Shown here: piece after piece, positions 8,180 to 25,077 of the stretch
Layout: the number at the start of each line of letters is the position of its first letter
Numbering within the stretch: the stretch's first letter is position 1
From: Candidatus Micrarchaeota archaeon
GTDB taxonomy: Archaea > Micrarchaeota > Micrarchaeia > Anstonellales > Bilamarchaeaceae
Length of the DNA stretch: 40,511 nucleotides
Direction: 5' to 3'
Assembly: GCA_041694845.1 (NCBI GenBank)
Contig: JBGFRY010000030.1
Span: 1-40,511, forward strand
Made by a program: the position numbers and the translations under genes
The notes under the pieces: model-generated
What the model was told of the DNA's origin: nothing
Seen by the model: the letters and a program-made list of their open reading frames with translations, nothing else
Database searches by the model: none

Positions 8180-9427
8180 ATGCTGATACGCTTTGTAGCA
8201 ATCTTCTTTTTCGTTACTACGATGATGCTTTCAGTTTCTTTTGCTGTTGATGAGTTTAATATAGTCCAATCAGGCCTTTTTTGGATAGTTCTCCCTGCAA
8301 CTGCCATAACAGTTATCGTGATTATATCGCTAGCTTCTATGCTTAGTCATGCATTTAATATGCCACAGCTTGAAGCATGGGCAAAGATAGAGTTTAGAGA
8401 ATTTATAATTGGCGTAATTCTTTCTGTGATCGTATTATCAATATTCTTGACCCCAGATCTTATAAGCATTCTCACAGGAACACCAAATTTTGTTACTTCA
8501 TCTATAAATACATTAACTGTATTTCGGGATAATTATCTTCTTGTTGCTTATACATCAACTATATACGCATCTCATGAGCTTACTCTTTTAACAGGTTATA
8601 GATATATCTATCCAATTAGTTTTCTATACTTTTCTCACACCGATGTCACCGCACCATTCACAGGTGTTGGTACGCTTCTTTTATTAGTTTCACATGCAGC
8701 AGCAGGGCTTTCAACTGCCATAATGGTATATAACTCAACTATCGTTCTTTTAGAATTCTTTCTCGTAGCGTCAGTATTGCTCCTTCCATTTGCCCTCTCA
8801 TTACGTTTAATCCCATTTAGCCGCAGGCTTGGCACAACAATGATCGCACTTTGTGTTGGTGCATACATCTTTCTCCCATTTTCGGTTTTCCTTGTATCAC
8901 AATTTCATACCCAGATTAATTTAGTAGATCTTGATAAAATGATAGAACTTAGTTCAAGTGAGCTTAATGCTATCCATCTTACTATTCCAATTGGATTCGG
9001 CGATCTTTGCAAAAATGATGCATTTAAGTTATTTACATCATTGCCAGGCGAGATCTGGGGGATAATATCCGGGATTTCATATTGCATACCAAGCTGTGCT
9101 GGAACAGGTCCTGGCTATGCAGCATGTTACACTGCGTGTTTTGCCAGTGTTTGGAGTTATACAGTCTATCATGCCTACCCATTTGCAAATGACATTGTGC
9201 AATTAACATATGGCACGTCTTTTTATTTAGCGAACAAGTTAAGTGGTATAGATGCAGGTATAGTATACAATATTATACATGAATTTCTTAAAGGTGTAAA
9301 TAGTATAGTTCTGTTAAGTTACATTAACGTTCTTGTAATAGGGATCATAACATATGTTGGAATAAGAAGTGTATCAACTGCATTAGGTGGCGAATATATG
9401 CTACCAGCAATTCAGAAGTTGATTTGA
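8180..9427 (+). CDS. Paralog 1 of 6: polytopic membrane protein, uncharacterised family
   Basis: Signal-like N-terminus MLIRFVAIFFFVTTMMLSVSFA. Family motifs AFNMPQLEAWAKIEF, LPFALSLRLIPFSRRLGTTMIA and C-terminal IRSVSTALGGEYMLPAIQKLI. Cys-rich loop YCIPSCAGTGPGYAACYTAC. Start moved to ATG 8180 because the ORF from 8063 overlaps padR. Confidence 0.8.
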   Translation: MLIRFVAIFFFVTTMMLSVSFAVDEFNIVQSGLFWIVLPATAITVIVIISLASMLSHAFNMPQLEAWAKIEFREFIIGVILSVIVLSIFLTPDLISILTGTPNFVTSSINTLTVFRDNYLLVAYTSTIYASHELTLLTGYRYIYPISFLYFSHTDVTAPFTGVGTLLLLVSHAAAGLSTAIMVYNSTIVLLEFFLVASVLLLPFALSLRLIPFSRRLGTTMIALCVGAYIFLPFSVFLVSQFHTQINLVDLDKMIELSSSELNAIHLTIPIGFGDLCKNDAFKLFTSLPGEIWGIISGISYCIPSCAGTGPGYAACYTACFASVWSYTVYHAYPFANDIVQLTYGTSFYLANKLSGIDAGIVYNIIHEFLKGVNSIVLLSYINVLVIGIITYVGIRSVSTALGGEYMLPAIQKLI

Positions 9428-10419
9428 TGAAAAGTAAACTGCAATATTTCTTCATTTTACTTTTGCTGATATCACTTTCATTTGCAGAACAGCTTAGCTG
9501 CAGCAGTAATGCTACGCATTATATTTTGAATTTCGAGGATAATCGCCTCCTGCTTCCAGGCATTCTAGCATTTACTGTATTTATGATCATACTTGCATAC
9601 ATGATAGGAAAAACTACGAATAATCCGCAGTTCCAGATTTTTTATAAGGATGAGATGTTCCATCTTTTCTTTTCACTTGCTATATTAGTTGTTTTTTCAG
9701 GAATCTTATTTTTCTCATGTGAAGCTATGCGATTATTCTTTGATTTCTATGTTCAAAAAGCCGGAATTATATCACCTCATTATACCTCTGGTAAATCCCT
9801 TCTTGACATCGCTTATGATATGATTTTTTATATGAGTTCTGACGCATCTTATTTTTCAGGACACCTAATCAAAAAAACAATAGATGCAACAATGTCGTCT
9901 ACGTGGGGTTATTCGTTATATTTTCCATTTTATGGCGGACTTACAATTGCTACAAATGCCTACAAAAGAACCCATGCTTTGCAATATGATAGCCTAAACA
10001 CATTTTTTATCTTGCCAGCTCTTATTAGCATTAACGTACAAAAATTACTCCTTAAATTTGTCATTGATTATGGTGAAGTTTATCTCCTACCACTTGGCTT
10101 TTTCTTAAGGTTATTTCCAAGTATGCGCCAGATGGGGAATATTGTCATCGCATTTGCACTTGGTCTTTTTACAATTCTCCCTTTCATGTATGTTTTAAAT
10201 GGGTTGATGTATGATGTTGTTACGCCACCACCACCACAAGGATGTGATCAATCAATGAAAAATATAATAGACGATCATGTAGTTGGTGATTGTGGTAAGA
10301 ATAGCTTTTACACTGCTGCAAGATTACTCCCCCAGGCATTTTTCCTTCCTAACTTAACACTTGCCATATTTATAACCTATCTCGCTGCAATAAATAAGGC
10401 ATTAAGGGTGTTGGGATGA
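9427..10419 (+). CDS. Paralog 2 of 6: polytopic membrane protein, uncharacterised family
   Basis: Signal-like MKSKLQYFFILLLLISLSFA. Motifs NNPQFQIFYKDEMF and LPLGFFLRLFPSMRQMGNIVIA. PPPP-Q-G-C...C loop. The C-terminal tail is shorter than in the others. The ATG overlaps the P1 stop (TGATG). Confidence 0.8.
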   Translation: MKSKLQYFFILLLLISLSFAEQLSCSSNATHYILNFEDNRLLLPGILAFTVFMIILAYMIGKTTNNPQFQIFYKDEMFHLFFSLAILVVFSGILFFSCEAMRLFFDFYVQKAGIISPHYTSGKSLLDIAYDMIFYMSSDASYFSGHLIKKTIDATMSSTWGYSLYFPFYGGLTIATNAYKRTHALQYDSLNTFFILPALISINVQKLLLKFVIDYGEVYLLPLGFFLRLFPSMRQMGNIVIAFALGLFTILPFMYVLNGLMYDVVTPPPPQGCDQSMKNIIDDHVVGDCGKNSFYTAARLLPQAFFLPNLTLAIFITYLAAINKALRVLG

Positions 10420-12350
10420 AAAGTTTTAAATTTTCAGTTTTCAGTTTTGTTCTAATCATTTTCGTGCTACTAGCTTTACTTTCACTCTCATACACGCAAG
10501 ATGTAACAGAAATATTGCAAAAAACAGAGCAGACATCAGCATTCGAACTTGTTAAAGACTGGCGCGTTCTTTCACTTTTGGCTGTAATGTTTTCTGTGAT
10601 AGTTGTAGCCATTGTTTACATGGTCGGTGTTGGATTTGATATGCCTGATCTAAAAGGTTTTGCAGCTGTTGAATTAAACCAAACAATCGTTACCGCAATC
10701 ATTGTTGCAGTACTTTTGTCAACTATAACTTTTCTTGATTTAATTACTGCAATGTTTGTGAATGAGAGTGATATACTAGATCCTAATAATCCAGACACTA
10801 TTCTAAATTGCGGACCAACTGATTTTTGTGCGAAAAAAATATCCCAGGCATATTTCAAAGACCTGTTAGATACTATAAATAATGCAGCCCGTGGAAATCT
10901 TATCTCTGCATTTAATTATGCAGAAGAGGCTGCAAGCAGAACTGGCTGGTCGTGCAACACATTTATTCTACCGATCCCATGTCTCTGGGGGTCTTTTTCC
11001 TATGCAGATGGTGCGCATCTTATCCTTCAAACAGAGCGGTTGAATATTGTATTAGAAACATATGCAACTATTCTTTCTTCTATCTATGCTCAACAATTTT
11101 TCATTGAGAAAATTTCATTTACTATTGCACCTGCACTTCTTTTGATTGGTATAGTTGCTAGGACACTCTTTTTTACACGAAAGCTTGGCGGCCTTTTAAT
11201 GGCAATAGGAATAGGAGTAATGTTTGTTTTTCCGACTATGTACGTGTTTAATTGGTTTACTATGAACGTAATGCTTTTTGGCGATGCTGTAGTCGGCGTA
11301 TATGGTGCAGTTTCCTGTCCAGAGGAATGCAAAACTGCACCTCTTGCATTTGAGAGTTCTTCGCCAATTACACCACCTAAAATGCAATTCACTCAGTATT
11401 TTTCAGTTAATGAATTATCTAAACGTCTCGAGGAATCAGGAGCAGCTCAAACAAATGACAAAGCAGCTACCTTGGCATATAACTTATCCACAGGCAAAAT
11501 CGAATCTGTCACCATAAGTGGTAATATAAAAATTTATTCATGCGAGTGGATGGCAAATCATACTGCGTTTGCGCAATATGGAGGATACTGTCCACAAGAG
11601 TGTAGAATTATTCCATATCCTGCTCTTCCAAAATGCCTTAATTATACTACGCAATTTGCCTGTGCAGCGTTGGATGGTAGTTGCAAATATATTCCATACG
11701 TAGATCTTATAGCACATCCTGATAATTATAATACACCAAAAAAATGCCCAAAAAAATGCCGTACTATTCCTCCACTTTCAACAAATTGCGATTATATAGA
11801 ATCATATAAAACTCTGAAAAAGAAAGAGTATAACTGTATCTACTCTCCAATTGAATGTCGTGTTGCATTAAAAGATAATCAAAACTGGAGACTAGAAGAC
11901 TGCCTTTCTACTGATAAATATAAAGTCATGATGCCAAATGGAACTCAAGTAGAGACATTCACAAAGGCAACATTAAAGTCATGTGTTGCTGTTAAAGATG
12001 ATCCTTATTCTTCATGCGCATATCAGATAGCAGATGAGGAGACATTAGAGAAAGAATGTGATGGTTGCGTTTTTGTTCCTGTTCAGTACACATTTGACCC
12101 ACCAATATATCTAAACTGTTTGGACGGATGCTCTCAACAGGATACGCCATTGATTTCTCCTGCTGATGTTACAAAGCAATCAAACAAAGGAATGGTTGGT
12201 AGAGATGACATAAAGAATGTAGCATCAGTCCTATTACCTAGTTTTCTTCTTCCACTTCTTAATATTCTTGTTACTGTTATGTTCATAAAAACATTTTCTC
12301 CACTTTTTGGAGGCGATATTGAAATTCCTGGTCTGCAAAAGGTGTTATGA
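10416..12350 (+). CDS. Paralog 3 of 6: polytopic membrane protein with roughly 300-aa Cys-rich insert
   Basis: Motifs GFDMPDLKGFAAVEL, IGIVARTLFFTRKLGGLLMA and C-terminal IKTFSPLFGGDIEIPGLQKVL. The loop between the last two TM segments is expanded (about nt 11304-12224) and holds about 20 of the protein's roughly 24 Cys (hand count). ATGA overlap with the P2 stop. Confidence 0.85.
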   Translation: MKSFKFSVFSFVLIIFVLLALLSLSYTQDVTEILQKTEQTSAFELVKDWRVLSLLAVMFSVIVVAIVYMVGVGFDMPDLKGFAAVELNQTIVTAIIVAVLLSTITFLDLITAMFVNESDILDPNNPDTILNCGPTDFCAKKISQAYFKDLLDTINNAARGNLISAFNYAEEAASRTGWSCNTFILPIPCLWGSFSYADGAHLILQTERLNIVLETYATILSSIYAQQFFIEKISFTIAPALLLIGIVARTLFFTRKLGGLLMAIGIGVMFVFPTMYVFNWFTMNVMLFGDAVVGVYGAVSCPEECKTAPLAFESSSPITPPKMQFTQYFSVNELSKRLEESGAAQTNDKAATLAYNLSTGKIESVTISGNIKIYSCEWMANHTAFAQYGGYCPQECRIIPYPALPKCLNYTTQFACAALDGSCKYIPYVDLIAHPDNYNTPKKCPKKCRTIPPLSTNCDYIESYKTLKKKEYNCIYSPIECRVALKDNQNWRLEDCLSTDKYKVMMPNGTQVETFTKATLKSCVAVKDDPYSSCAYQIADEETLEKECDGCVFVPVQYTFDPPIYLNCLDGCSQQDTPLISPADVTKQSNKGMVGRDDIKNVASVLLPSFLLPLLNILVTVMFIKTFSPLFGGDIEIPGLQKVL

Positions 12351-12353
12351 TTT

Positions 12354-13376
12354 ATGATAAAACTCCGAACGCTGATAGTTGCAATATTGATTTCTTTCCT
12401 GTTTCTCACTAATATAATATTTGCAGGTTGGTTAGAGCTTACTGCACAGGCGCTATTACTCTCTTTTATGATTCTTGCTTTAATGTATATGATCGCTATT
12501 GGCTTTACAATAAACGAGCTCAAATTTCTTGCCCAAGAGGAGTTTTGGCAACTCATAGTTACAGTTGTTATGGTCGCATTGCTTTACAGTACACACACGT
12601 TCTTTGATTCTTTATTTGCTTCACCAGAATTTGGAGCAAATGGTGGTGTGCAAAAAGCATCCATTAAGATCTCGCAAGATATAATATCAAAATTAGATTT
12701 GATATTCGAGAATGTAAAAGATCAAGCTGATGATGCTGGCAGAGAATCTTCAATAAGTGTTTTCTGTTCATTTATGGGTACATCTGTTTACGTTGCAGCA
12801 TGTGGGTCATATCGAGCAATAACCCCAATTTACTCTACTTCCTATCAAGTTCTCTCAATCGCATTAATGGAAGAAAAATCGCTAGAGATACTTCTTACTA
12901 TCGGTTCAAAATACGCATTTACAATATTTCTCCCATTAGGTATATTTTTGCGTACTTTCAAATTTACTAGAGGAGCTGGCGGATTTTTGATAGCACTTAG
13001 CATTGCATTTTATTTTGTCCTTCCTCTTACTGTATTTATTTTTGATGAATTAGCAAAAACAGCAAAGAGTAATATAGAAAATGTACCTCCTGGTTCAATC
13101 ATTAAGCCAATTAATCTAGAGGTTCAAAATCTTAATAAGATTAATGAATGCGATATGTACAACCCTGATCGTGCTGATGAGAATAGCAATGTCGATTCTG
13201 TTGTCAGTGCATTAAATGATATGAACAGTAAATCTATGGGATATCTATATGTTATGCTTGTAAATGCTAGTTTGGGAGTTATAATCCCGATAGGCGCTAT
13301 GATTGCTTCGATAAGAGCATTTTCTGCTCTTGCTGGTGCAGAGGTGGATGTAAGCGCACTTTCTAGAATTGCGTAA
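12354..13376 (+). CDS. Paralog 4 of 6: polytopic membrane protein, uncharacterised family
   Basis: Motifs GFTINELKFLAQEEF, LPLGIFLRTFKFTRGAGGFLIA and C-terminal IRAFSALAGAEVDVSALSRIA. Starts 3 nt after the P3 stop. Confidence 0.85.
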   Translation: MIKLRTLIVAILISFLFLTNIIFAGWLELTAQALLLSFMILALMYMIAIGFTINELKFLAQEEFWQLIVTVVMVALLYSTHTFFDSLFASPEFGANGGVQKASIKISQDIISKLDLIFENVKDQADDAGRESSISVFCSFMGTSVYVAACGSYRAITPIYSTSYQVLSIALMEEKSLEILLTIGSKYAFTIFLPLGIFLRTFKFTRGAGGFLIALSIAFYFVLPLTVFIFDELAKTAKSNIENVPPGSIIKPINLEVQNLNKINECDMYNPDRADENSNVDSVVSALNDMNSKSMGYLYVMLVNASLGVIIPIGAMIASIRAFSALAGAEVDVSALSRIA

Positions 13377-13390
13377 TTGGTTGGTTAAAT

Positions 13391-14407
13391 ATGGTCGCAG
13401 GGCAATTGTTATGTGATGGTGACGGTGCTCTTGGATTTTCGCAAATAATTACTGATAGTATCATTCCGCTTACTGCATTTGCAGGAGTTATCACTTCTAT
13501 CATTGTAGCGCTCTCTTATATGTTTGGAGAAATGATCCAAAACCAAAAAATTATCGTATGGGCAAAAACAGAATTCTTTCAAATATTCATTTCACTTGCA
13601 TCAGCTTTGTTGATTGTTGGTCTTATAAACTCTTTTTGCACATTCAATTTTTCAGATATAGTTGCACTTACGCAGGATAAAACAATAATATCACCTACAT
13701 TAGCTCACCAGAATATTTATGATGCTGCAAAAACCTATTTGGAGGATGTAGCTAAATACTCACATGATGTATTAAGAGGACAAAGGGCGATGCTCGCAAG
13801 ATTCAACATGCTAGAAGGAAGAGCACGCTGGTATTGTCTTAGCTATACTTTTTGTCTCTTTAATCCATCAGGCTACCATACCGCACCTTATGCTGGTGTT
13901 GCACTTGCTTCTGCTGCATTCACTGTTTCTTTCAATACTTCCCTGTTTTCTTACCTCTCTTCTCTAAATTATTTGTTTATATTAAATTATACATACAGTG
14001 GGATAGCACTACTATTCATTCCATTTGGGATTTTCCTTCGTTCAATGCCATATATGCGCTCTTTTGGGGGTTTAATCTTAGCTGTTGTATTTTCATTTTT
14101 ATTTATCTACCCAAGTCTATTGGCAATATTTAATATTATAGGAAGCGTTATAACACAATCAAGTTGTCCTACTGATGAAGGAATTATAGAAGCATTAGGT
14201 AAGAATGTTATGCAGGAAGAAGGAAACAATGAAGAATCTACAGTTCCTTGCAATTATGCAAATACAATAATGGACAGTAGCGGCGCATTTATTTTCGCAG
14301 TGTTTCTTCCAACAATTGCATTAGTTGCCACTATCGCTAGCATTCGTTATGTAGCTCGTTTACTAGGTGAAGATATCGATCTTAGTAGGGTAGTTCAAAT
14401 GATGTGA
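13391..14407 (+). CDS. Paralog 5 of 6: polytopic membrane protein, uncharacterised family
   Basis: Motifs MIQNQKIIVWAKTEF, IPFGIFLRSMPYMRSFGGLILA and C-terminal IRYVARLLGEDIDLSRVVQMM. Confidence 0.85.
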   Translation: MVAGQLLCDGDGALGFSQIITDSIIPLTAFAGVITSIIVALSYMFGEMIQNQKIIVWAKTEFFQIFISLASALLIVGLINSFCTFNFSDIVALTQDKTIISPTLAHQNIYDAAKTYLEDVAKYSHDVLRGQRAMLARFNMLEGRARWYCLSYTFCLFNPSGYHTAPYAGVALASAAFTVSFNTSLFSYLSSLNYLFILNYTYSGIALLFIPFGIFLRSMPYMRSFGGLILAVVFSFLFIYPSLLAIFNIIGSVITQSSCPTDEGIIEALGKNVMQEEGNNEESTVPCNYANTIMDSSGAFIFAVFLPTIALVATIASIRYVARLLGEDIDLSRVVQMM

Positions 14408-14413
14408 TATGAT

Positions 14414-15442
14414 GTGGTTGTCATGAGTGAAATATCAATTTTCCTTGAAGATCTTCAAAATAAAGGGCTTTGGTTCAGCCTTCCACTCATAGCCACGTTT
14501 ATCGTCATCCTCATAAGAGGATTGCTTGTTGGAATTGGCCATGCATTTAATATGCAAGAACTCGAAAGAAATTCAAAAGCTGAAATCATTCAGGCTATTG
14601 CAACATTTTTGATTCTTGTATTTATTGTTGAAATAATTCTTGGAGTAGAATCATATATCATAAAAGATGTGCTTGGTGCGGCTAGCTATATAAAATGTGG
14701 TGCAAATCAAATTCCAGTTGTTGATCCAAATACTGAAAATACTCTTAATCTCATGGAAGTCATAAAATGCCGCGTTAATGAAAAGGCATATATGCTTGCA
14801 GACATGCAGGAAAAAGTATATTCAAATGCATACTGGCCTTTTTGGAAACTTTCTATTGTAGTTTCTGTTGCTGGAGTACCAGCATTCCAGGGAAGTTGGA
14901 TTGATACGTGGTTTAGCGAAGCAGAGCAGATGCGTTTACTTAATATAGTAATTACTACTTTGTTAATTGGTCTTAATGGAATACTAGTTTTCATAAATTA
15001 TGTCAAGAGTAACATGCTGCCAGTGTTCTTGCCAGTTGGCATTGTTTTGCGTGCCTTTAATTTTACAAGAGGAGTTGGCGCATTTTTCATTTCTATTGCT
15101 TTAGGGCTTTATCTAATCTTTCCATTAATTTTCGTTCTAACTGACCCAGGATTCGTTAAGGTCAGTAGCTATGAGGTGTTTCCGCAGCAGATAAAACCAA
15201 CTAGCTGTTACCCAGTTTTTTCAGGAGTTGTATCTGCAGTAACAGCTGCTCAACAGGATTCTGCAGTAGGCTCAGCATCAATCATTCAAAAAACAGTTAG
15301 CGATCTTCAAAGTATTTACATGTTATTACTTCTGCATCCGTTTGTTGTTCTTGCAATTACTTTAATATTTGTGAGATATCTGATGTACTTATTTGGTGGC
15401 GAGCCACAGGATATCATGCGTTATGTTGCGAGGGTGATTTGA
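14414..15442 (+). CDS. Paralog 6 of 6: polytopic membrane protein, uncharacterised family
   Basis: Motifs AFNMQELERNSKAEI, LPVGIVLRAFNFTRGVGAFFIS and C-terminal VRYLMYLFGGEPQDIMRYVARVI. GTG start at 14414, or in-frame ATG at 14423. Confidence 0.85.
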   Translation: MVVMSEISIFLEDLQNKGLWFSLPLIATFIVILIRGLLVGIGHAFNMQELERNSKAEIIQAIATFLILVFIVEIILGVESYIIKDVLGAASYIKCGANQIPVVDPNTENTLNLMEVIKCRVNEKAYMLADMQEKVYSNAYWPFWKLSIVVSVAGVPAFQGSWIDTWFSEAEQMRLLNIVITTLLIGLNGILVFINYVKSNMLPVFLPVGIVLRAFNFTRGVGAFFISIALGLYLIFPLIFVLTDPGFVKVSSYEVFPQQIKPTSCYPVFSGVVSAVTAAQQDSAVGSASIIQKTVSDLQSIYMLLLLHPFVVLAITLIFVRYLMYLFGGEPQDIMRYVARVI

Positions 15443-18400
15443 TGATAAGAAGGAATAAAAATAAACACTATCTATTAACATTTGTTTTTATTGCCATTAT
15501 GATTATTGTCTTTATTAGTATTTTTGCCACTGCAGGTTGCACTATTAAGAAAAATACAAGTTTTGGTTGCTGTGATAAAAAATACGCAGCTCAGAACGGA
15601 GAATGCAAATATATTGACAGTAATATGGATCAATACAAAAAGGATCTTGGTCTTGAATCAGGAGAGGTTATTCAAACCAATAACTGTGATATTAAAAAAG
15701 GCTATTGCAATGTTTCAATTAACAAGATTACTCAAGCTAGTCCAGATTCTATAGAAATTCCAATCTGTTCTCAACCAGAGATTACTGATTGCATTCAGTC
15801 AAATTGCAATGCAATGGTTTGTGGTCCATTTAAGTTTACTCCTTCACTTCCGTCATCAGGATTTATAGCTATTGAATCAGGTTCAAAAGGTTATTCTCCA
15901 GAGATGCTAACAGGTCTAATGGGTTCAACATGTAAATTCGTTCCAATAGATGAAAATTTAAAAAATGTTTTTAAGAATACCCGCAACTCGTTCGTGAATA
16001 CATTTAGGGTTGGTTTCGGCCCTAGTTTTGAAAGCTACCAGCGTGGAAGTCTTATCTATCCTCATACAGATAAATTTTGTGGTATTAACCCAGTAGGTAC
16101 AATGGACAGATTTGAAAATTATCTCATCACTCTTGATAGTGCATCTGTTCTTAATGGAAAGAGCATTGATTATGCAGAACAGCATGGCTTGAAGATTTTT
16201 AATCCTGTTAAATATTTCAATGATCCTGGGATTTGCATTAATGATACTCTTATTGAGCCCTTCAACACAACTAATTACGGATATTCTGTTAGTGGTGTGC
16301 AACCTGCTTATACGAATTTTATGAATTCCTATAAATTTACTTATTACAACAAACAAGTTGGTATTCTTAAAGAAGGTGGTTTTGTTTCATTAGATAGTTT
16401 GAGCCCTATTAATCTCTATACTTACTCTCAGATTGACAGGGCGTTCTATGCAAAGGCTCTTCCTTTCATCTATCGAGGCGATTATGATATCGGAAATGTG
16501 AAAATGCCATTTGAATGTAACTTAGAAGCAACAGAGTGTAAATCAGGAACATGTGCAACAAAGGATTATTCAAGAGAAGTATGTATTGATAAGGATACAG
16601 GAGAGGCAGTATTCTGCGATTGTATCACATGGTCTGACAACAAAGGTGATGGATTATTGGGCGCTGGTAATGCTGTTCTTTGCATGCCAAGATGGTGGTA
16701 TGGAGACTTTTTGATGAGCGATCTAACACCATTAGATGAGGAGTCCTCTATAAATTATGAAAAAATCATGGATACCTCTTATATGGCATATCCGCTAACA
16801 ATATCTACAAATATAGAAACTAGGTTAGCAGAATCTCATATGAACGAACTAATATTTAGAAATATAGAAACTAAGTCAGTAGGATATAATATGGACGAAC
16901 TTGTTCTAAATAGAGATAATTGGAACGTTGGCGGCTTGGATTCACTATTTCCTGCTGCAATAGTTTTCTTTGGCTCAATGGAAGGTGATGACTACAAAAA
17001 CGTTCGTGAAAACCACCAAGAAGAAATAGGTTTTAGCCTTCTTCTAAAAGATCAATTTGAGAATACTGCACTAGTTAAAAATTGTCAGATGAAAGAAGGG
17101 ATAGATTATATTGTTTATAATTTTACATCGTATGATCAGGCGGATTCTTTTGGGCATGTGCCGTATGGTTACTATAATTATGAAGATATTTATTATGAAG
17201 ATAATTATTATAAAGAGGATTATAGATATTCGCCAAATTATATAAGCATACTCTCAACAGGGAGATGCAAACTTGAAAAAGGCTCGCATGAAGAGATGCC
17301 AAAACTTAGGAGATATGGATGGTGTGAGCCATGCAGTTATGCAACTATAGCACTTCAAGTTGTTAAAACAACAACACCGAGTTATTTGCCAGGAGCTATA
17401 ATACCTCTTCTTCCACCATCTGTTTCTAGTTCAAAAACACAGGCATCTGCTGATGCATACCAAGGCCTTGATGGCTGGTGCGATCCTTCCTCTTATTGTA
17501 AATCGTTATGTAGTATAGGATGCAAGAAATGGGATTATGGTTCTTGCGATGAATATTACGACCAATCACTCACTGACCCAATAATATTTGGAAGTTCTGG
17601 AACTTTATGGCATCCTGCGACAGGAATAAAATGTGGTGATGCATATCCATGGCCAACAACAAATCCAGAGATAACATATCTGCAAACACAGCTTACTGAT
17701 CTACTCTCTCGCGGAGTTCTGCCTGTGCTTGATCTTTCTGATGATGAAATATGGAAAGCAGTTCAAGTAAAAAACATCTTCGGGAGTAAAATAGGTGAAT
17801 ATAGTGATTATAACATCAAATATCTATTAGGATTAAATAAAGGACCAATCATTGTTGTTATTAAATCATTCGATAGCCAAATTTCTGATCATTCATCTAT
17901 TGATGCACTTATTAAATATAGAAGCGAGCAGGTTAAATATTACTGCTCAAAATGCCTTGTTGCTGTTCATGTTTCTAATGCAAATACAGAAAACGATCTT
18001 AAAACTCTTGAATCGCTTTTTAAACTTATACCTAACCATAGTAGTTGCTATGATTTTAAAGATATTCCTGTATTCTGCAACAAAGATTTAGTTAATGCAA
18101 TTGATATAATTACGTTCAATGTTAATCTAAAAGATTACAGCGATAACACCATATGCACTGCAACAGATGTTCCTTATTACTCTTACATGCCAATAGTTAC
18201 TAACATTACGCAATTTGGAAGAGATGTTTTATATCTCTTCCAAAAACCAACTCTTATTCAACACTTCAATGCAACAGGTTTCTGCGGTAATGATGAAAAA
18301 AAGACGCAATCAGCGCTTTCTTATATGTTTACCAACCAGCTTCATTTTGCAAAAGCAGGTATAACTGGTATGATTATAACAAATCCGGATTACAAAACAT

Positions 18401-19038
18401 ATTCTAATCCTTTGCAGGCTAGTGATTATAGCACTCTTAATATACCAGACAGTTGTGCACTTGAGAAAGCATCGCACTTTATTTTAGAAGGGAAGCAGGC
18501 ATATCTCTATCAAAAACAATATACAATGCCGCAGGATAAAGTGCTATGCATGAAAAAAAATGATATCGAAAAAATAATAGATCCTTCAGTTAATTTAAAA
18601 TGCGCAAATGGAGCAGAATGCACTCTTCCAGTAGGTGCAACTAATAAAGCAGATTATAAATGCCAACAAAACAACATCCCTGAGCCCTGTAAGCAATGTG
18701 CTCTTGATACGCGACAACTTGAATGTAGGATAACCCAGTTAGACGGCAGTAAATTAACTAATATCTATAATATTACTGACTTCAATGACGCATACCAGCA
18801 ATTTATTGGAAGCATGCCTTATGGTGAGCAGTGCTGCCTTCAAGGTAGTACTGGGTTGAATTACACATATATAAAAAATACAATAACGCCAAAAGCAAGT
18901 GCACCTTTAATGTATTCAAAAAAAGGTTATGAGAATGAAGATTGTGGTCAGATGGATACTTCTATGTTTGATACATTATGTGGGATGCCGATGCTTCCTC
19001 AAGTAAGCACTAATAAAATAGAATGCAAAATAAAATAA
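15442..19038 (+). CDS. Giant Cys-rich exported protein, predicted lipoprotein (about 1,198 aa)
   Basis: N-terminal TM/signal ends in the lipobox-like FATAGC. About 49 Cys by hand count and many N-x-S/T sequons. No domain recognised by eye. The ATG overlaps the P6 stop (TGATG), so it is co-operonic. Confidence 0.85.
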   Translation: MIRRNKNKHYLLTFVFIAIMIIVFISIFATAGCTIKKNTSFGCCDKKYAAQNGECKYIDSNMDQYKKDLGLESGEVIQTNNCDIKKGYCNVSINKITQASPDSIEIPICSQPEITDCIQSNCNAMVCGPFKFTPSLPSSGFIAIESGSKGYSPEMLTGLMGSTCKFVPIDENLKNVFKNTRNSFVNTFRVGFGPSFESYQRGSLIYPHTDKFCGINPVGTMDRFENYLITLDSASVLNGKSIDYAEQHGLKIFNPVKYFNDPGICINDTLIEPFNTTNYGYSVSGVQPAYTNFMNSYKFTYYNKQVGILKEGGFVSLDSLSPINLYTYSQIDRAFYAKALPFIYRGDYDIGNVKMPFECNLEATECKSGTCATKDYSREVCIDKDTGEAVFCDCITWSDNKGDGLLGAGNAVLCMPRWWYGDFLMSDLTPLDEESSINYEKIMDTSYMAYPLTISTNIETRLAESHMNELIFRNIETKSVGYNMDELVLNRDNWNVGGLDSLFPAAIVFFGSMEGDDYKNVRENHQEEIGFSLLLKDQFENTALVKNCQMKEGIDYIVYNFTSYDQADSFGHVPYGYYNYEDIYYEDNYYKEDYRYSPNYISILSTGRCKLEKGSHEEMPKLRRYGWCEPCSYATIALQVVKTTTPSYLPGAIIPLLPPSVSSSKTQASADAYQGLDGWCDPSSYCKSLCSIGCKKWDYGSCDEYYDQSLTDPIIFGSSGTLWHPATGIKCGDAYPWPTTNPEITYLQTQLTDLLSRGVLPVLDLSDDEIWKAVQVKNIFGSKIGEYSDYNIKYLLGLNKGPIIVVIKSFDSQISDHSSIDALIKYRSEQVKYYCSKCLVAVHVSNANTENDLKTLESLFKLIPNHSSCYDFKDIPVFCNKDLVNAIDIITFNVNLKDYSDNTICTATDVPYYSYMPIVTNITQFGRDVLYLFQKPTLIQHFNATGFCGNDEKKTQSALSYMFTNQLHFAKAGITGMIITNPDYKTYSNPLQASDYSTLNIPDSCALEKASHFILEGKQAYLYQKQYTMPQDKVLCMKKNDIEKIIDPSVNLKCANGAECTLPVGATNKADYKCQQNNIPEPCKQCALDTRQLECRITQLDGSKLTNIYNITDFNDAYQQFIGSMPYGEQCCLQGSTGLNYTYIKNTITPKASAPLMYSKKGYENEDCGQMDTSMFDTLCGMPMLPQVSTNKIECKIK

Positions 19039-19124
19039 ATATAAATAAATAATGTAAATTAATATATAACTTATATAAATGAGTATATAGATAAGTTAAA
19101 TAATCATAGAGCGATTTGATTCAC

Positions 19125-22100
19125 ATGATTCGGTCAGGTTTAATTAGTTCTAGTATTTGTGTATTCTTTCTCTTTATATTTACTTCAACCGGTTTCTCGC
19201 AGATGCCAGTGATGTGCATACAAGGGCAGCATTTTTACACTTATTTTTCAACAATGCAAAATGAATCACAAACTATTATAAGTAGTCGTCTTGTTTATGA
19301 GAATATTGCAGTCAAGCCACCATTACAACCTGTTATATTTGCTCCATTATTTATATATGTATATAACGACACATGGGATGGTAAACTAATTCTTACCTAT
19401 ACTAATAATGATGGCTATGCAACTATAAATATCTCAAAGCATGTGCCTGAGAAAAGTTGTTACAATGTAAGAATTATCTACTGTAATGCTGATGAAATAA
19501 CCATCTCTTGTCTTGAAAATTTCGGTGTAAAAAAACCTATATTAGATTGGTTGAAAGCACAAGCGCAGATTGAAAAGATAAGTACTCTTATGTTCTATCC
19601 AATTTCAATTCTTAGTTTTAGTAGTGATACTTTTGACATGAGTTTATTTAAGAATTCGCCTTCAGGTCCTCTGTCGTTTTTCACTCCTAAGTGGTACCGA
19701 TATTATACAAGCCAAATGCCAGATACCTATTCTCATTCATCAACTATTACATTAAGCTCTGCATTAGATGAGATTCAGATGTGTGGTGGTGGCGCAACAG
19801 TTGCTCCTGCAGCAACAGTATCATTTTGCATACCTTTAATATTGATATTCGCGCTTATGGCAGGAGGGCTTTTCCTCTCTGGAAAAAACCCACTTATGGG
19901 ATTTGATTTTGCAACACCGAGAATTGGTAAATATTACGGAAGATACAGTGCTCGTGGAAGAGGATGGTTTTTTGATTTAAGCTCAATAAGAACTTTTGCA
20001 TCAGGAATTCAATCTGCAAAATCAGATGTAGTGAATCTTAAATCAGAAGGATATATTGGGATGATTACAAGAGATATTAAATCTATGTTCAGTGGTTTAA
20101 CCACATCTTCTGAAAAAGTTAAAGATAGTGCTAAGACACCAGGAAGTGCTTCAAGCGTCAGCCAAGCTGCTGTAAAACTTGGTCTTGGTACTGGAAGAAG
20201 AGGAATGGCTTTGTTCGGGTTGGAACGTGTTGCAGGTGGTGGCGGGATAGTTGCAAAAGGCAAGGCAGTATCATATATTTCGAGTAGATGGGGAGAGTAT
20301 AAACAAGAAAAAGGAAAAGATGCTATAGTTTATGGCCACAGTCACACTGTTTCAACAATTTTAGGAGCTATCATAGGATATTTTGATCTCCCTGGTATAA
20401 TTAATTGGATAAATGTTTTTGCAGGAACTCAAAAGGACTGGAAGCAGATTTTTGGGAACCTGGCAAAACCAAGTAAGTCGAATGCGCGAGAAACACTTAA
20501 AAAAACTGGACCAAACGGTGAAGGCATTCAAATTAGCTATGAATATGAGAGTATTAACTATGAATATGCGAATCAAACAACAAAAAACAAATATAAGAAA
20601 ACTTTTACTTTACAGCAACTTCATGATGGAAAATTTATAATAACTGTAGATGAGAAAAAGATTACAGTTAACACAAGCGATCAAGATGATGTTGGAAAAG
20701 CTGCAAAAGAATTAGGTATAGAACCACAACGGATCATTGAGATGAAAACAGAGTTCGAGAAGCAGAGAACTGCAGCTGCTTTTGTTGTTTTTGAAGCAGC
20801 ACATGCAAGAAATATGAAAGTAGGCAGTACTATTAGCTCATTAGCTTCAGAGATGGCTAAGAAGATAGAAGATAGAATTAAAGAATATGAAGAAAGCAAA
20901 GAAACTGCAACTGATCTTAATGATGTAATAAAAAAAATCGCCATGCTCCAAAAAGAAAAAGAGAACTATCAAATAATTGCAGCATATTATGCAGGGCATG
21001 TTGATAATGATAGATACAATGATGCAGTAAAAGATTTATATTCAAGTAAAAAAATGTCAGATGAGATTGGATTGCAAATAGATATTTTTAACATAACAAA
21101 GAAAGAAGTGGAATATACACAACGGTTTGCAAATACTTCATTTATTATCTTTAATATTTTGCAACAACAAAAACAGGTTTCATCATCACTTAATGGAGAA
21201 ATCAGTGCTGCAACTGATTCAGTTAGTAAACTTGGAGACTATATATTGAAAGCATCAAATCAATCAAAAGATGTTTATGATGAAACATTTTCTAAAAAAA
21301 TTGAATTGGCAATTGCTGATGCAAATCTTAAAACTGCACGTGCAGAAGCAGCAGGTGCTTTATATTATACTCTTCCCCCAGATACTAAGCTAGAGGATTT
21401 TCAGAAATTGAAATTGCCAGAACTAGATATAAATGTCCCTGCAGAAATGGATAAAAACTACTTTGTTCATAAGAAAGCCGAGATCTATAAAGATCTTACA
21501 AAACTATACACAAGTGTTTCTCAGTATGCTCTTTATATCGAAAATGAAAATGTAGGACCGCGAGTCACTCCCAAACTTGCAGATGACATAGCAAATATAG
21601 GGAATTATGCTGTGAAATCTGCAAAAACTATTAGTGATGCCTCTTTAATGTTGGAGACTCTATTAATCGCTTCATCTGCTGATCACTATCTAACAGATTA
21701 TTCTACAATAAATGGCCTTATTGTCCTTTACGCAACTGATAAAACTGATAATCAACGAAATAATCGCATTCAATATATGAATATATATCTTGAGGTTAAC
21801 AATAACCACAACGCAGCGCAGCGAAAAGCGCTTGGAGGGATGATGGAGACAGAAGATGGTGTTAATAAAGTGATGAGCTGGTTAGAGAGCCGTAGTAGTG
21901 TACCTAAATATAAAACTATCGTAGAAGGAATAAAGGATGGAACAATTATAAGAGTACGAGAAAGAGATATGGATCTTAATAATCCAGCTATCAAAAGTGC
22001 AGTTGCAGACGTACTAGTAAAGCACTTACCAGATCAAGATTTAGATCGCTTTCTTGAGTTAAAAATAGATTACAAAAAAGGATTTGAAGAATTATTTGCA

Positions 22101-22346
22101 GTACAGTATAAGGCTCCGGCAGAGAGTGATAGTGATGAAAATAAGCAGAAATATGAAGATCATTTAATAGAGATTTATAAGAAAATGGAGGACCCTATAG
22201 TAAAAATTGTTACTGACAATATCAAAGTATATAATGATAGGATATCCATAGCTGACGCTACTGAAATAGTTAAAAGATTACAGAACCGCGGTCTTAAACA
22301 AACTGCCGATAAATTTAAAACTATTTATTTGTCAGATAAAAAATAA
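19125..22346 (+). CDS. Large bitopic membrane protein: exported N-domain, one TM, roughly 800-aa helical cytoplasmic region
   Basis: Signal-like MIRSGLISSSICVFFLFIFTSTGFSQ. Beta-rich N-domain of about 200 aa. TM VSFCIPLILIFALMAGGLFLSG (about nt 19812-19880). Then a Gly/Arg-rich linker and a long Lys/Glu/Ala-rich predicted helical region. An own A/T-rich promoter-like spacer lies at 19039-19115. Alternative TTG start at 19116. Confidence 0.8.
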   Translation: MIRSGLISSSICVFFLFIFTSTGFSQMPVMCIQGQHFYTYFSTMQNESQTIISSRLVYENIAVKPPLQPVIFAPLFIYVYNDTWDGKLILTYTNNDGYATINISKHVPEKSCYNVRIIYCNADEITISCLENFGVKKPILDWLKAQAQIEKISTLMFYPISILSFSSDTFDMSLFKNSPSGPLSFFTPKWYRYYTSQMPDTYSHSSTITLSSALDEIQMCGGGATVAPAATVSFCIPLILIFALMAGGLFLSGKNPLMGFDFATPRIGKYYGRYSARGRGWFFDLSSIRTFASGIQSAKSDVVNLKSEGYIGMITRDIKSMFSGLTTSSEKVKDSAKTPGSASSVSQAAVKLGLGTGRRGMALFGLERVAGGGGIVAKGKAVSYISSRWGEYKQEKGKDAIVYGHSHTVSTILGAIIGYFDLPGIINWINVFAGTQKDWKQIFGNLAKPSKSNARETLKKTGPNGEGIQISYEYESINYEYANQTTKNKYKKTFTLQQLHDGKFIITVDEKKITVNTSDQDDVGKAAKELGIEPQRIIEMKTEFEKQRTAAAFVVFEAAHARNMKVGSTISSLASEMAKKIEDRIKEYEESKETATDLNDVIKKIAMLQKEKENYQIIAAYYAGHVDNDRYNDAVKDLYSSKKMSDEIGLQIDIFNITKKEVEYTQRFANTSFIIFNILQQQKQVSSSLNGEISAATDSVSKLGDYILKASNQSKDVYDETFSKKIELAIADANLKTARAEAAGALYYTLPPDTKLEDFQKLKLPELDINVPAEMDKNYFVHKKAEIYKDLTKLYTSVSQYALYIENENVGPRVTPKLADDIANIGNYAVKSAKTISDASLMLETLLIASSADHYLTDYSTINGLIVLYATDKTDNQRNNRIQYMNIYLEVNNNHNAAQRKALGGMMETEDGVNKVMSWLESRSSVPKYKTIVEGIKDGTIIRVRERDMDLNNPAIKSAVADVLVKHLPDQDLDRFLELKIDYKKGFEELFAVQYKAPAESDSDENKQKYEDHLIEIYKKMEDPIVKIVTDNIKVYNDRISIADATEIVKRLQNRGLKQTADKFKTIYLSDKK

Positions 22347-22361: not shown

Positions 22362-22700
22362 ATGGGATTTTTAAGCGATATTTTAAAGACAATGGTTGGA
22401 GGAGGTATAGAGGTAAAAAAAGGACCTAAGCAGAAATGCCCTAATTGCAAGGAAGATATTACTTTGGATATGAAGCGCTGTCCTAAATGTGGGGTTCATA
22501 TAAGCTCAATGTTTAGAATGAAATGCCCAAAATGTAAAGAACTGAACGAGCTTGATGCAAAAAAATGCAAGAAGTGTGATTATAATTTTGAAGCAGAGCT
22601 AAAACGTGCTGAAGAAAGTGTTTATATATGCCAAATATGTCAGTATAAAAGTAAAGTGTTTCTTACTTCCTGTCCTGCATGCAATACGAGATTTATATAG
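22362..22700 (+). CDS. Triple zinc-ribbon protein
   Basis: Six CxxC pairs in 112 aa: CPNC/CPKC, CPKC/CKKC, CQIC/CPAC. Confidence 0.7.
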   Translation: MGFLSDILKTMVGGGIEVKKGPKQKCPNCKEDITLDMKRCPKCGVHISSMFRMKCPKCKELNELDAKKCKKCDYNFEAELKRAEESVYICQICQYKSKVFLTSCPACNTRFI

Positions 22701-22738
22701 GATATATAAAATACGAAATGCAGTGAGTGTGATTTAAA

Positions 22739-23314
22739 GTGTATGAGAAATTTAAAACCGATACAAACCAAGAAGAAAAAAAAGAAAAGAAAGATGTAGA
22801 AAAGAAAAAATTTAATATTTTGCTTGAAGAGGACAATGTTGAGATAAAGCTTCTTGAAGAAGCTGATGTTGAAGAAGTAGTAAAAGTCATGCGAAAATGC
22901 TCGTTTGACGTTACAGATAAAGAAGTTTCTCTGATTACTGTATATGGGATGTCTTTTGGTGCTTTTGTCAACCGTATACTTATTGGTGTTGGGCTAGGCT
23001 GGCCTGCAAATTTTGATGAAAATCAAAAAAAGATTATGGGTGGAGAAGCTAACGCTATATATATGGAAGATGCAGCAATTTTGATCTCTTACGAAGGAAG
23101 AGGAATTAGAAGAATTCTTCTAAAAGAAAGAGAAAATGAAGCTAAAAATCGTAATTTTCTTTACTCTGTGGCTTATCTCTCAGCTGACTTACCAAAAAGC
23201 GGGGTTGACGACTACATAAAAGAAGCTGGAAGTCAAGTTGAGAAACTCTATCTATCAGAGAGTTATGAATTTATGAAAACTGATAAAGGCATTTTAGTAA
23301 TGAAAAAATTATAA
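22739..23314 (+). CDS. GNAT-family N-acetyltransferase-like protein with Lys/Glu-rich N-terminal tail
   Basis: The ILISYEGRGIRRILLKERENEAKNRNF block resembles the GNAT acetyl-CoA motif A (R/Q-x-x-G-x-G/A). The surrounding beta/alpha pattern is compatible. GTG start. Confidence 0.55.
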   Translation: MYEKFKTDTNQEEKKEKKDVEKKKFNILLEEDNVEIKLLEEADVEEVVKVMRKCSFDVTDKEVSLITVYGMSFGAFVNRILIGVGLGWPANFDENQKKIMGGEANAIYMEDAAILISYEGRGIRRILLKERENEAKNRNFLYSVAYLSADLPKSGVDDYIKEAGSQVEKLYLSESYEFMKTDKGILVMKKL

Positions 23315-23358: not shown

Positions 23359-25077
23359 CTATTTTTTTATCAGATTATACATTAGAGATACTAAAACAAT
23401 AATTAGAATAACTACAATGAAATAAAAAATACTCTCACCATTCTTAGTACCTTTAATAGTTTCATTTTTTTCAGTTAATCGTTTTTTTATTTCTTCTGTT
23501 GCTTCATCCAACCCTTCTGCAAATTTGAATATTTTATACGCAACATTCTCAGTTCCTTTTTGCTGTGCCAGAAATACTCCATGGCCTTGGTAAAGTTTTC
23601 CCCAGAGCGAGCTCCTATTTTTTCCTTTCATTTCTTCTATTTCGTCATTTATCTGATTTGAGCTATGCGTCTTAATATAATCAATTGCATGTACACTTGT
23701 TATGATGAAAACAGAATCGTATACTGCTCCTGCGTATAATTCCTTATCAAAAAGATTTTTTGCTGCTTGCAAATGAAACTTTAAATCATTGTCATAAATA
23801 GTAAGCGACTGCGCTTCTTCTAATTTATCTTTGGCAAGTTCTTTGAGTGATGATTCATCAATTTCTTTTCCTTTTTCATCAATCATGTTTCTTAACTCAT
23901 TAGAGACATGACACCATGCATCAGCATACATTAATTCATTGAATACAAAATATTTTTCGTCAGCAAGCAATGGCTCATCTACATTAGTATTGCTAATTTT
24001 TGTTAGTGCCCATTCCTTTCTTATATCAGCACCAGCCAACCACTCAAAATTATTAAAAGTTTTCTTATAATTCTTAAGTGCATTGACACATGCAATTACT
24101 CTTTCCTTTTCTTTGTATAAATCCAGATTTTCAACATTCTCCAAAATTCCCAAAGAGGTTGCATAAATATAATTTAAAAACGCTCCGTTAGCAGCAGTAA
24201 ATATATAACCTTTTTCAAGAAGAACCTTTTGATTTTCAATTTCCTGTAAAAAGAATTTTTTAAGTTCTTTAGTTTCATTCAACGATTCTGATAAGGAGTA
24301 TACTCTTTTACTCTCGAGTTCAATCATCGCTAGAGCAATCTCTTTAAATTTTGTAAGATCACCATTATCAAAGGTATCATGCACTGTCAAAGTAGGTAAG
24401 ACCTTTACTTCTGCCTTAAATTCTTTTTTTTCTATTGTTGTATTATAAAATATGAAATCTATTGCTTCATCTACATTTTCAATCTGAAGTATTTGCATTC
24501 CATACTGTTTTTCCAGTGGCTTTAATAGTAATATCTCGTGAATATCTTCAACTGGTATTATAAAATACTTTATTCCTTTTCTGCCAGCCATTTTTGATTT
24601 TTCATAAAGGCCACCTACTTTTTTAACATTGCCATCTTTGTCAATTGAACCAGTAAATGTAACATCATTAGGAATAGTAAAATTGTTTATTGCTGCATAT
24701 ACCAAAACAGAAAATGCTACGCCAGCACTTGGCCCTTCGACATACCCAGTAAGACCTTTTCCTTCTATTTTTATAAGTACATTGCATTCATCAATGTATT
24801 TATTACTTCTTGAAAAAGCATATGTAACTGCATCTGTGGCAGATTTTTGCGTAGATGTCCCTGTTGGCGGATGTGTTTGGAGATAAACAGTACCATCCCC
24901 ATTAACAAGATTTAAAGATACATCTATTAGCTTTCCAGTTGTCTGCAAACCTGTTTCATCACTTACTATTGCGGGTACAACACTACCAGCATACCCTAAA
25001 CATTCTGCTGTTCCTGAATTAATTAATAGAGGTAAATAGAATGCAATAAATAGTATTAATTTTATGGACGATTTCAT
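23359..25077 (-). CDS. Exported, C-terminally membrane-anchored Lon-type (MEROPS S16) serine peptidase domain protein
   Basis: N-terminal signal MKSSIKLILFIAFYLPLLINSGTA. S16 proteolytic-domain blocks YVEGPSAGVAFSVLVYAAI (catalytic Ser) and TGSIDKDGNVKKVGGLYEKSKMAGRKGIKYFIIP (catalytic Lys region). No AAA+ module. Roughly 330-aa helical domain, then C-terminal TM FYFIVVILIIVLVSLMYNLI. Confidence 0.75.
   Translation of the reverse strand: MKSSIKLILFIAFYLPLLINSGTAECLGYAGSVVPAIVSDETGLQTTGKLIDVSLNLVNGDGTVYLQTHPPTGTSTQKSATDAVTYAFSRSNKYIDECNVLIKIEGKGLTGYVEGPSAGVAFSVLVYAAINNFTIPNDVTFTGSIDKDGNVKKVGGLYEKSKMAGRKGIKYFIIPVEDIHEILLLKPLEKQYGMQILQIENVDEAIDFIFYNTTIEKKEFKAEVKVLPTLTVHDTFDNGDLTKFKEIALAMIELESKRVYSLSESLNETKELKKFFLQEIENQKVLLEKGYIFTAANGAFLNYIYATSLGILENVENLDLYKEKERVIACVNALKNYKKTFNNFEWLAGADIRKEWALTKISNTNVDEPLLADEKYFVFNELMYADAWCHVSNELRNMIDEKGKEIDESSLKELAKDKLEEAQSLTIYDNDLKFHLQAAKNLFDKELYAGAVYDSVFIITSVHAIDYIKTHSSNQINDEIEEMKGKNRSSLWGKLYQGHGVFLAQQKGTENVAYKIFKFAEGLDEATEEIKKRLTEKNETIKGTKNGESIFYFIVVILIIVLVSLMYNLIKK

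Follow-up and report, generated by a model that had tools for sequence, protein, structure and literature searches.

A gene that we call T (15442..19038, + strand) is predicted to encode a cysteine-rich lipoprotein of 1,198 amino acids (aa) in a 40,511-nucleotide stretch of DNA from a Candidatus Micrarchaeota archaeon (GenBank assembly GCA_041694845.1, contig JBGFRY010000030.1). This whole stretch, hereafter the window, has a G+C content of ~35% and archaeal gene content. The open reading frame (ORF) of T begins with ATG at 15442 and ends with a stop codon at 19036-19038; its assignment draws on the ORF and its translation, on homologues, and on collinear family alignments. Directly upstream of T lies an array of six paralogous genes (A to F) predicted to encode membrane proteins, and downstream lies a gene for a large protein that we call G. 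Based on a lipobox that recurs throughout its family, conserved cysteine columns, and predominantly even cysteine counts, T is most likely a genuine, conserved, exported surface protein that is lipid-anchored and disulfide-bonded.

The T protein contains exactly 49 cysteines, in agreement with the hand count of about 49 in the initial annotation, which was made from the sequence alone; this amounts to 4.09% of its residues, compared with 1.09% in the other 33 ORFs of the window. The three dense cysteine clusters listed in that annotation were all found in the translation, where cysteine-rich strings occupy aa 356-394, 680-706, and 1054-1095. There is only one hydrophobic segment in T (aa 7-37, ending F-A-T-A-G-C33, with the TGC codon for C33 at 15538-15540). 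The lipobox-like signal noted earlier thus ends a lone N-terminal hydrophobic helix, and its last four residues, T-A-G-C33, match the consensus [LVI][ASTVI][GAS]-C except at position -3, which is atypical. The initial annotation also described N-x-S/T sequons as numerous; this did not hold, as their number in T is at chance level (10 observed vs 11.2 ± 2.9 expected from 2,000 shuffles), without enrichment, and a glycosylation signal is not supported.

Pfam and NCBIfam scans of T, A-F, and G returned nothing at threshold, and Pfam scans of T family members were likewise without a match at threshold, which bears out the earlier remark that T carries no named domain. Searches of PDB sequences (profiles of T and of the paralogs, as well as G and paralog C) yielded no match, and neither T nor A-F matched PADLOC or PHROG models. 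An exhaustive HMMER search of 1.84 billion cluster representatives identified 205 relatives of T at E < 1e-3, 71 of them at < 1e-30; nearly all 205 are 1,100-1,900 aa long and match T along its whole length. One word-index protein search with T recovered T itself and a single relative at 29% identity, and another recovered 22 proteins, all unnamed or labelled “hypothetical” or “uncharacterised,” among which the taxon-labelled entries are all Micrarchaeota or “uncultured archaeon.” A pattern scan of species-representative genomes located 23 genomic loci, all in DPANN metagenome-assembled genomes. Nearly every one of these carries the label Micrarchaeota or Micrarchaeia, with Bilamarchaeaceae (order Anstonellales) among them, and a single record is filed as Iainarchaeum; T homologues across these loci share ~25-35% identity. 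T relatives were absent from viral contigs in an IMG/VR scan. Because collinear full-length homologues exist (~120 proteins of at least 1,000 aa that align with T over their full length), T is not a fusion created by an assembly error, a possibility that had been raised in the initial annotation; no homology of T to a known S-layer or adhesin family was found either.

We based residue conservation on an alignment of 120 T family members. A lipobox of the form [LFIV][LFIV][LFA][AS]-G-C is present in 111 members, ~30 cysteine columns are at least 85% conserved, and the lipobox cysteine is followed by an even number of cysteines in 90 of the 120, as expected because disulfides pair cysteines. Some other assignments were rejected. 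Twin-arginine export appears untenable, given that the R-R pair of the window protein does not recur in homologues; a Cys-His protease in the core is at odds with the lack of any conserved histidine there; and an S-layer protein is contradicted by the lack of an S-layer domain and by a composition with 4.1% cysteine. Profile comparison with hhalign detected neither internal repeats in T nor kinship of its cysteine modules with the ectodomain of paralog C (all probabilities < 2%). Elsewhere in the window, a membrane-anchored DsbA-like thioredoxin (30314-31084; Thioredoxin_4, E = 9e-32, CSYC motif) and a two-domain glutaredoxin/PDO-like protein (2550-3188; CPYC motif) are encoded, and these could be the makers of the many extracellular disulfides.

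AlphaFold2, run on T with a 30-sequence alignment as input, gave a model with a mean predicted local distance difference test score (pLDDT) of 67 and a predicted template modelling score (pTM) of 0.69. Taken together with the alignments, the model divides T into eight parts. The signal/anchor helix and lipobox (15442..15540, + strand like all parts of T) comprise aa 7-30 and Cys33, based on hydropathy, an AlphaFold2 helix at 8-30, and the G-C pair kept in 111 of 120 members. An N-terminal cysteine-rich β module follows (15562..15831; aa ~41-130 in the model and alignments), in which C43, C44, C55, C82, C89, C109, C117, C122, and C127 are each at least 90% conserved. Next is a conserved core (15913..16689; aa ~158-416) with pLDDT of ~66-86 and no match among PDB sequences or in Pfam; the polar residues best conserved in the family lie here, namely R189, D210, D222, R223, Y227, Y336, E358, S368, and R378 (96-100%, n = 120). 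A variable insert (16693..16956; aa 418-505), predicted to be disordered based on pLDDT < 50 and gapped in alignments, separates the core from a middle β region (16954..17421; aa ~505-660) whose motif G626-W-C-E-P-C631 is invariant or nearly so. A second variable insert (17419..17646; aa ~660-735; pLDDT < 50) is cysteine-rich, with C680, C686, C690, C694, C702, and C731; these cysteines are poorly conserved, only C690 reaching ~90% in the 30-sequence alignment. The last two parts are a β/α barrel (17653..18537; aa ~738-1032), defined by AlphaFold2, Foldseek, and residue statistics, and a C-terminal cysteine-rich β domain (18538..19035; aa 1033-1198) with ~10 conserved cysteines.

The initial annotation had pointed to alternating short strands and helices in this region and had suggested, as a speculation, a β/α-barrel or Rossmann-like enzymatic module, with a glycosidase-like or other hydrolase barrel put forward for checking. 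The alternation is real: AlphaFold2 predicted 7-8 β/α units at residues ~740-1030 with pLDDT of ~85-95. Foldseek matched only this region of T to the PDB, and the matches are to glycoside hydrolase (GH) enzymes of clan GH-A, with probabilities of 0.99-1.0 over ~300 aligned columns; they include a GH5 mannanase (9m20, E = 7e-5), GH53 galactanases (6gpa and 1hjq, target-normalised TM-scores of 0.44-0.47), and members of GH26, GH10, GH164, and GH35, with E-values between 7e-5 and 1e-3 overall. A viral structure library also returned GH proteins, and one of 30 T family members matched Pfam Glyco_hydro_53 at E = 0.079. The barrel part of the earlier suggestion was therefore upheld by AlphaFold2 and Foldseek, whereas a canonical hydrolase was not supported, as the pair of catalytic glutamates is not conserved. 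No glutamate between residues 738 and 1032 is conserved among the 120 members, and the only acidic positions there that are at least 70% conserved are D764 (87%, at the C-terminal end of strand β1) and D888. The catalytic acid/base glutamate expected at the C-terminal end of β4 within an Asn-Glu motif is not kept, the window protein having F892-N893-V894-N895; among the 120 members, 53 carry D at position 893, 16 carry E (D/E in 58%), and the remaining 51 have some other residue. A nucleophile glutamate was not found at the end of β7 either, where the strand 1020-1029 bears K or R at position 1025. Because no glutamate in the barrel is conserved, T is probably not a canonical glycoside hydrolase. 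Judging from the predicted structure, the barrel probably represents a GH-A-like scaffold outside the GH families, acting as a binding module or a non-canonical enzyme. The fold predicted for T residues ~740-1030 matches that of the clan GH-A hydrolases (GH53 6GPA/1HJQ, GH5, GH26, GH10); unlike those enzymes, T has no Pfam GH match at threshold and does not conserve the two catalytic glutamates, and its barrel is embedded in a 1,198-aa cysteine-rich lipoprotein with ~700 residues N-terminal to it.

The stop codon of paralog F (TGA, 15440-15442) and the ATG of T have one base in common, forming a TGATG junction (15440..15444, + strand) that is read directly from the sequence; the overlap of the T start with the stop of the sixth paralog, which the initial annotation had described, is thus present as stated. 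Stoichiometric co-production of T with the paralogs, proposed on that basis, is plausible only as an inference. The same junction is tight elsewhere: in 19 of 20 other loci, F and T are 0-1 nucleotides (nt) apart or overlap by 1-4 nt, based on ORF calls that open at whichever start codon comes first after a stop, which makes the starts approximate. The sole outlier is locus L007, with ~95 nt.

All six paralogs are encoded on the + strand. Paralog A (8180..9427) occupies an ORF that opens at 8063; the ATG at 8180, which lies ~25 nt after a TATATAAA box and opens a signal-peptide-like sequence, is more likely to be its start. With a start at 8063, paralog A would run into the PadR gene on the opposite strand (7781-8116, minus strand). 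Paralog B (9424..10419) has a signal peptide followed by a body with five transmembrane (TM) helices, and paralog C (10416..12350) carries a cysteine-rich extracellular insert of ~320 aa with CPxxC[KR] repeats. Paralog D (12354..13376) has a weak CedE match (E = 0.0034). It is followed by paralog E (13391..14407) and paralog F (14414..15442), the latter predicted by AlphaFold2 to have five TM helices, with long helices reaching out of the membrane. The six window proteins are true paralogs, with pairwise identities of 20-31% and E-values of 1e-6 to 1e-18. In 20 of 21 informative loci, T is directly preceded by six such paralogs in constant order and with constant sizes (~400, 335, 700, 330, 350, and 345 aa), which supports the tight coupling of T to a six-paralog array given in the initial annotation. 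In 18-19 of 19 loci, the best match of each window paralog is the one at the corresponding position. Given this positional orthology, the sequences indicate that the duplications are older than the divergence of these lineages and that every copy has been individually retained.

Based on hydropathy and AlphaFold2, the paralogs share a layout of ~340 aa with an outside N-terminus, five TM helices, a large external loop after TM2, and an inside C-terminus. This N-out/C-in topology is indicated by the cleavable-looking signal peptides of B orthologues and by the location of the cysteine-rich insert of paralog C (aa ~285-600, 24 cysteines) in the TM4-TM5 loop. The mature N-terminus of B orthologues (P0151-P0160) bears a conserved C-x-x-[ND]-A-T, a possible N-glycosylation site, which gives the outside position of the N-terminus further backing. 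The repeats of paralog C read CPEECK, CPQECR, and CPKKCR, and its orthologues have medians of 37 cysteines and 3 such motifs; the insert has no sequence kinship to the cysteine-rich modules of T. An alignment of 65 paralogs identified E57, P207, R213, R219, G222, P237, and G328 (paralog F numbering) as invariant. The motif L-P-x-G-x-x-L-R-x-x-x-x-T-R-x-x-G lies on the cytoplasmic TM3-TM4 turn, with invariant residues from P207 onward. In the AlphaFold2 model of paralog F (pLDDT 76, pTM 0.70; five TM helices), three of the TM helices run 15-25 residues beyond the membrane, and there is an external helix of 41 residues.

This layout resembles that of VirB6-type proteins. We compared the paralog F model with 350,000 PDB chains using Foldseek, and the highest TM-scores and lowest root-mean-square deviations (rmsd) belong to TrwI/VirB6 chains of the R388 stalk, all at E > 0.6. 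Chain 8rt9_F aligned with a probability of 0.60 and TM-scores of 0.33 (query-normalised) and 0.39 (target-normalised) at a non-significant E-value; the next-ranked chains are 7o3v_F/G/J and 8rtd_L/H, and TM-scores range from 0.33 to 0.40. TrwI of R388 is 342 aa long and laid out like the paralogs. The NCBIfam model matched by the largest number of paralogs is CedA (3 of 65, best E = 1.2e-4), CedE being matched by one (E = 0.0034), and all of these alignments fall on the TM3-loop-TM4 region. CedA and CedE have been described as 5-TM homologues of VirB6 (bioRxiv 10.1101/2024.09.27.615246). Consensus sequences of the six orthologue groups matched neither CedA nor CedE in NCBIfam, and a comparison of the paralog profile with R388 TrwI in hhalign gave a negative result (probability 0.4%). 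A VirB4/CedB/HerA-type ATPase, a coupling protein, or a pilin was not found within ±10 kb of the cluster in the window or at loci L027 and L029. On these sequence and model comparisons, kinship of the paralogs with VirB6/CedA is an interesting lead that is unproven.

Downstream of T, protein G (19116..22346, + strand; 1,076 aa) has a likely start at ATG 19125 and its own AT-rich promoter region. This conserved bitopic protein begins with a signal/TM segment and a conserved cysteine-containing ectodomain of ~200 aa, and a TM helix (aa ~230-257) links these to a cytoplasmic tail that is variable and ~800 aa long; a juxtamembrane motif G-x-Y...A-R-G-R-G is conserved, and a Walker A motif was not found in G. 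G adjoins the array wherever a locus has sequence at that place. Its position downstream of T is confined to the window and locus L003; elsewhere it is divergent and upstream, beside PadR. The genes that directly follow T in nearly all other loci, often with overlap, encode a zinc-ribbon and a GNAT-like protein. In the window these lie at 22362..23314 on the + strand, the double zinc-ribbon protein (112 aa, 12 cysteines) at 22362-22700 and the weakly GNAT-like protein (191 aa) at 22739-23314, and both are very well conserved. Only G and the zinc-ribbon protein gave weak sub-threshold matches to PADLOC/PHROG models.

The wider neighbourhood is housekeeping in nature and syntenic, with PurA, ACT, ScpB, AAA_18, and PadR on one side and a Lon_C-like exported peptidase and Elp3 on the other. 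The Lon-like protein (23359-25077, - strand; 572 aa) combines a signal peptide and a C-terminal TM helix with a Lon protease S16 C-terminal domain (E = 2.7e-14), and appears to be exported or anchored in the membrane. Its gene keeps synteny with the cluster in 18 loci; in the window it is inverted relative to other loci. The relocated G and the inverted Lon_C-like gene point to local rearrangements in the lineage of the window that left the A-F-T block intact. At locus L021 (JALWZW010000074.1, 1-7844), TruD-like, Trm1-like, and PP2C-like genes lie upstream of T, and the zinc-ribbon, GNAT-like, and Lon-like genes are kept downstream. The window also carries genes for L24e, NDK, a short PurA, ScpB, Elp3, and Sua5, as well as an A-type ATPase operon. 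At 3736-5676 it encodes a 646-aa Beta_propel protein (PF09826, E = 1e-161) with a lipobox-like LLFGC, outside the conserved synteny; an AAA_14/DUF4143 ATPase (1157-2404), absent from syntenic loci, may be a lineage insertion.

With modest confidence, we favour the explanation that T is the exported, lipid-anchored, disulfide-stabilised subunit, acting as a cap or in recognition, of an undescribed and vertically inherited envelope complex of Micrarchaeota; in the loci sampled, the genes of this putative complex were seen only in Micrarchaeota-type DPANN archaea. Under this model, A-F would form a fixed hetero-oligomeric membrane platform, for which a pseudo-sixfold ring is the simplest arrangement, with the N-termini outside and the helical extensions pointing outward. 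T would be made last, from a transcript common to A-F, and would then be exported by the Sec route, which is suggested by the absence of a twin-arginine motif in the family, and would receive its lipid at Cys33. About 24 disulfides would lock the protein, which would dock onto the A-F platform as an extracellular cap. The barrel and the core (R189, D210, D222, R223, Y227, E358, R378) might bind a glycan or envelope ligand or, alternatively, process it by non-canonical chemistry, and the ligand would come from the archaeon's own S-layer or from a host. A more elaborate version, which we consider doubtful, is that the eight genes encode an envelope-spanning machine specific to Micrarchaeota, in which a VirB6-like pseudo-sixfold ring, held by G, would carry T as a glycan-recognising cap; the machine would serve as a symbiont-side port for docking to hosts and exchanging material with them, without a dedicated secretion ATPase in the locus.

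Several observations weigh against the envelope-complex explanation. Position -3 of the lipobox in the window protein is a threonine, which is non-canonical, and ~27% of the AlphaFold2 model of T has pLDDT < 50. The likeness of the barrel to GH-A enzymes is at the level of the fold only, with 8-13% identity and target-normalised TM-scores of 0.33-0.47. At L021, T is present without the array in 3.9 kb of upstream sequence, and the adjacency of T and the array may partly reflect general synteny (PurA-ScpB-AAA_18-PadR ... Elp3). Neither a ligand or substrate nor an energy source (ATPase) is identifiable within ±10 kb of the cluster.

The observations on synteny also bear on another account, in which T is a free-standing surface adhesin or envelope protein that is physically separate from the paralogs and the adjacency is an inherited gene order in a slowly rearranging region. 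The synteny does extend far past the cluster into unrelated housekeeping genes, L021 keeps T together with the zinc-ribbon, GNAT-like, and Lon-like genes in the absence of the array, and the zinc-ribbon gene is tied to T more firmly than G is. We nevertheless regard this account as very unlikely: the F-T junction is tight in 19 of 20 loci despite protein identities of only ~25-35%, the A-F-T block is intact where G has moved (in the window and L003), and conservation along the whole length of T, with near-invariant polar residues, is unlike that of fast-evolving adhesins. Glycosidases such as PelA, PgaB, BcsZ, and PslG are attached to bacterial exopolysaccharide machines, and by analogy T could be an active non-canonical glycosidase or lyase that acts on S-layer glycans or exopolysaccharide, with the paralogs as a synthase, polymerase, or export apparatus. 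This is consistent with the proximity of the barrel to GH53, GH5, GH26, GH10, and viral GH proteins, with the Glyco_hydro_53 match of one family member (E = 0.079), and with the acidic residues at strand ends (D764, 87%, at β1; position 893 at the end of β4, D/E in 58%); the 96-100% conserved arginine, aspartate, glutamate, and tyrosine residues of the core are also of a composition typical of sugar-active sites. What makes this enzyme-centred account quite improbable is that residues 738-1032 contain no conserved glutamate and that T of the window has an asparagine at 893, that the conserved neighbourhood contains no gene for a glycosyltransferase, a flippase, or sugar-nucleotide metabolism, and that the paralogs match no Wzy, Wzx, or GT-C family (best Wzy_C match in 1 of 65, E = 0.22).

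A third account, which is unlikely in our estimation although the likeliest of the three rivals, treats the cluster as a diverged type-IV-secretion/Ced-like conduit that would move DNA, proteins, or metabolites between symbiont and host, with the paralogs as a VirB6/CedA stalk base and T as a VirB5/VirB1-like tip or wall-breacher. The paralogs have the layout of VirB6 and, at ~340 aa, the size of TrwI (342 aa); the best TM-scores and rmsd values for paralog F go to TrwI/VirB6 chains, and the CedA (3 of 65, best E = 1.2e-4) and CedE (E = 0.0034) matches converge on the same TM3-loop-TM4 region, CedA and CedE being themselves 5-TM VirB6 homologues according to the preprint cited above. Against this, every Foldseek E-value exceeds 0.6, the consensus sequences of the orthologue groups match neither CedA nor CedE, hhalign against TrwI is negative (0.4%), and G has no Walker A motif. 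A VirB4/CedB/HerA ATPase, a coupling protein, and a pilin are all missing within ±10 kb in the window, L027, and L029, and the surroundings are housekeeping genes with no mobile element. Tandem VirB6 paralogs do occur in Rickettsiales, where the Rvh type IV system includes tandem, diverged VirB6 copies that are presumed to co-assemble; those copies are recognisable as VirB6 and stand beside type IV genes, and neither is true of the A-F array.

Set against described systems, the proposed complex resembles several of them in part. Paralogs A-F are like VirB6/TrwI and CedA/CedE in size, in N-out topology with five TM helices, in the loop after TM2, and in their long helices. Unlike VirB6 and Ced systems, which have one or two such proteins, the cluster has six fixed paralogs, and no VirB4/CedB ATPase, pilin, or VirB5 homologue is nearby (window, L027, and L029); the type IV and Ced systems described so far contain nothing equivalent to T itself. 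Lipoproteins are reported to be prevalent in DPANN archaea, and archaeal lipoproteins depend on AliA/AliB (PMC12462473). Like other lipobox lipoproteins, T has a signal helix followed by [AS]-G-C, and this holds across its family; its lipidation is predicted, and unlike most characterised archaeal lipoproteins, which are substrate-binding proteins, it is unusually large and cysteine-rich. The Micrarchaeota S-layer protein SLP_Mh (Micr_00292) has a PF05123 domain and almost no sulfur-containing residues (bioRxiv 10.1101/2021.04.28.441871). SLP_Mh is a large exported surface protein, as T of the same phylum is predicted to be, whereas T has no S-layer domain and contains 4.1% cysteine.

No description of the cluster was found in the full-text literature on Micrarchaeota S-layer proteins, cysteine-rich proteins, and protein families or on VirB6 in DPANN archaea. 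Because curated families match none of the eight proteins and a recognisable fold is limited to one domain of T, we regard the cluster as a new kind of system. Should VirB6/CedA kinship be confirmed, it would instead count as a very divergent form of type-IV-like machinery.

DPANN archaea such as Micrarchaeota are host-dependent and have tiny genomes, and the contact hardware on the symbiont side is essentially uncharted; papers using cryo-tomography describe nanotubes and contact sites, to which genes have not been assigned (PMC11329633). Here, ~14 kb of a reduced genome is spent on eight proteins without an annotated domain, and the order of the cluster is kept across deeply diverged members of the phylum at protein identities of 25-35%. 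The combination of a six-paralog platform with a giant disulfide-rich lipoprotein therefore makes the cluster a strong candidate for host-contact hardware or for an essential envelope-building machine. For work on the few Micrarchaeota in culture, it is a specific target that proteomics, subtomogram averaging, and multimer modelling can address, and the VirB6/CedA signal, if true, would widen the evolutionary reach of type-IV-like conduits.

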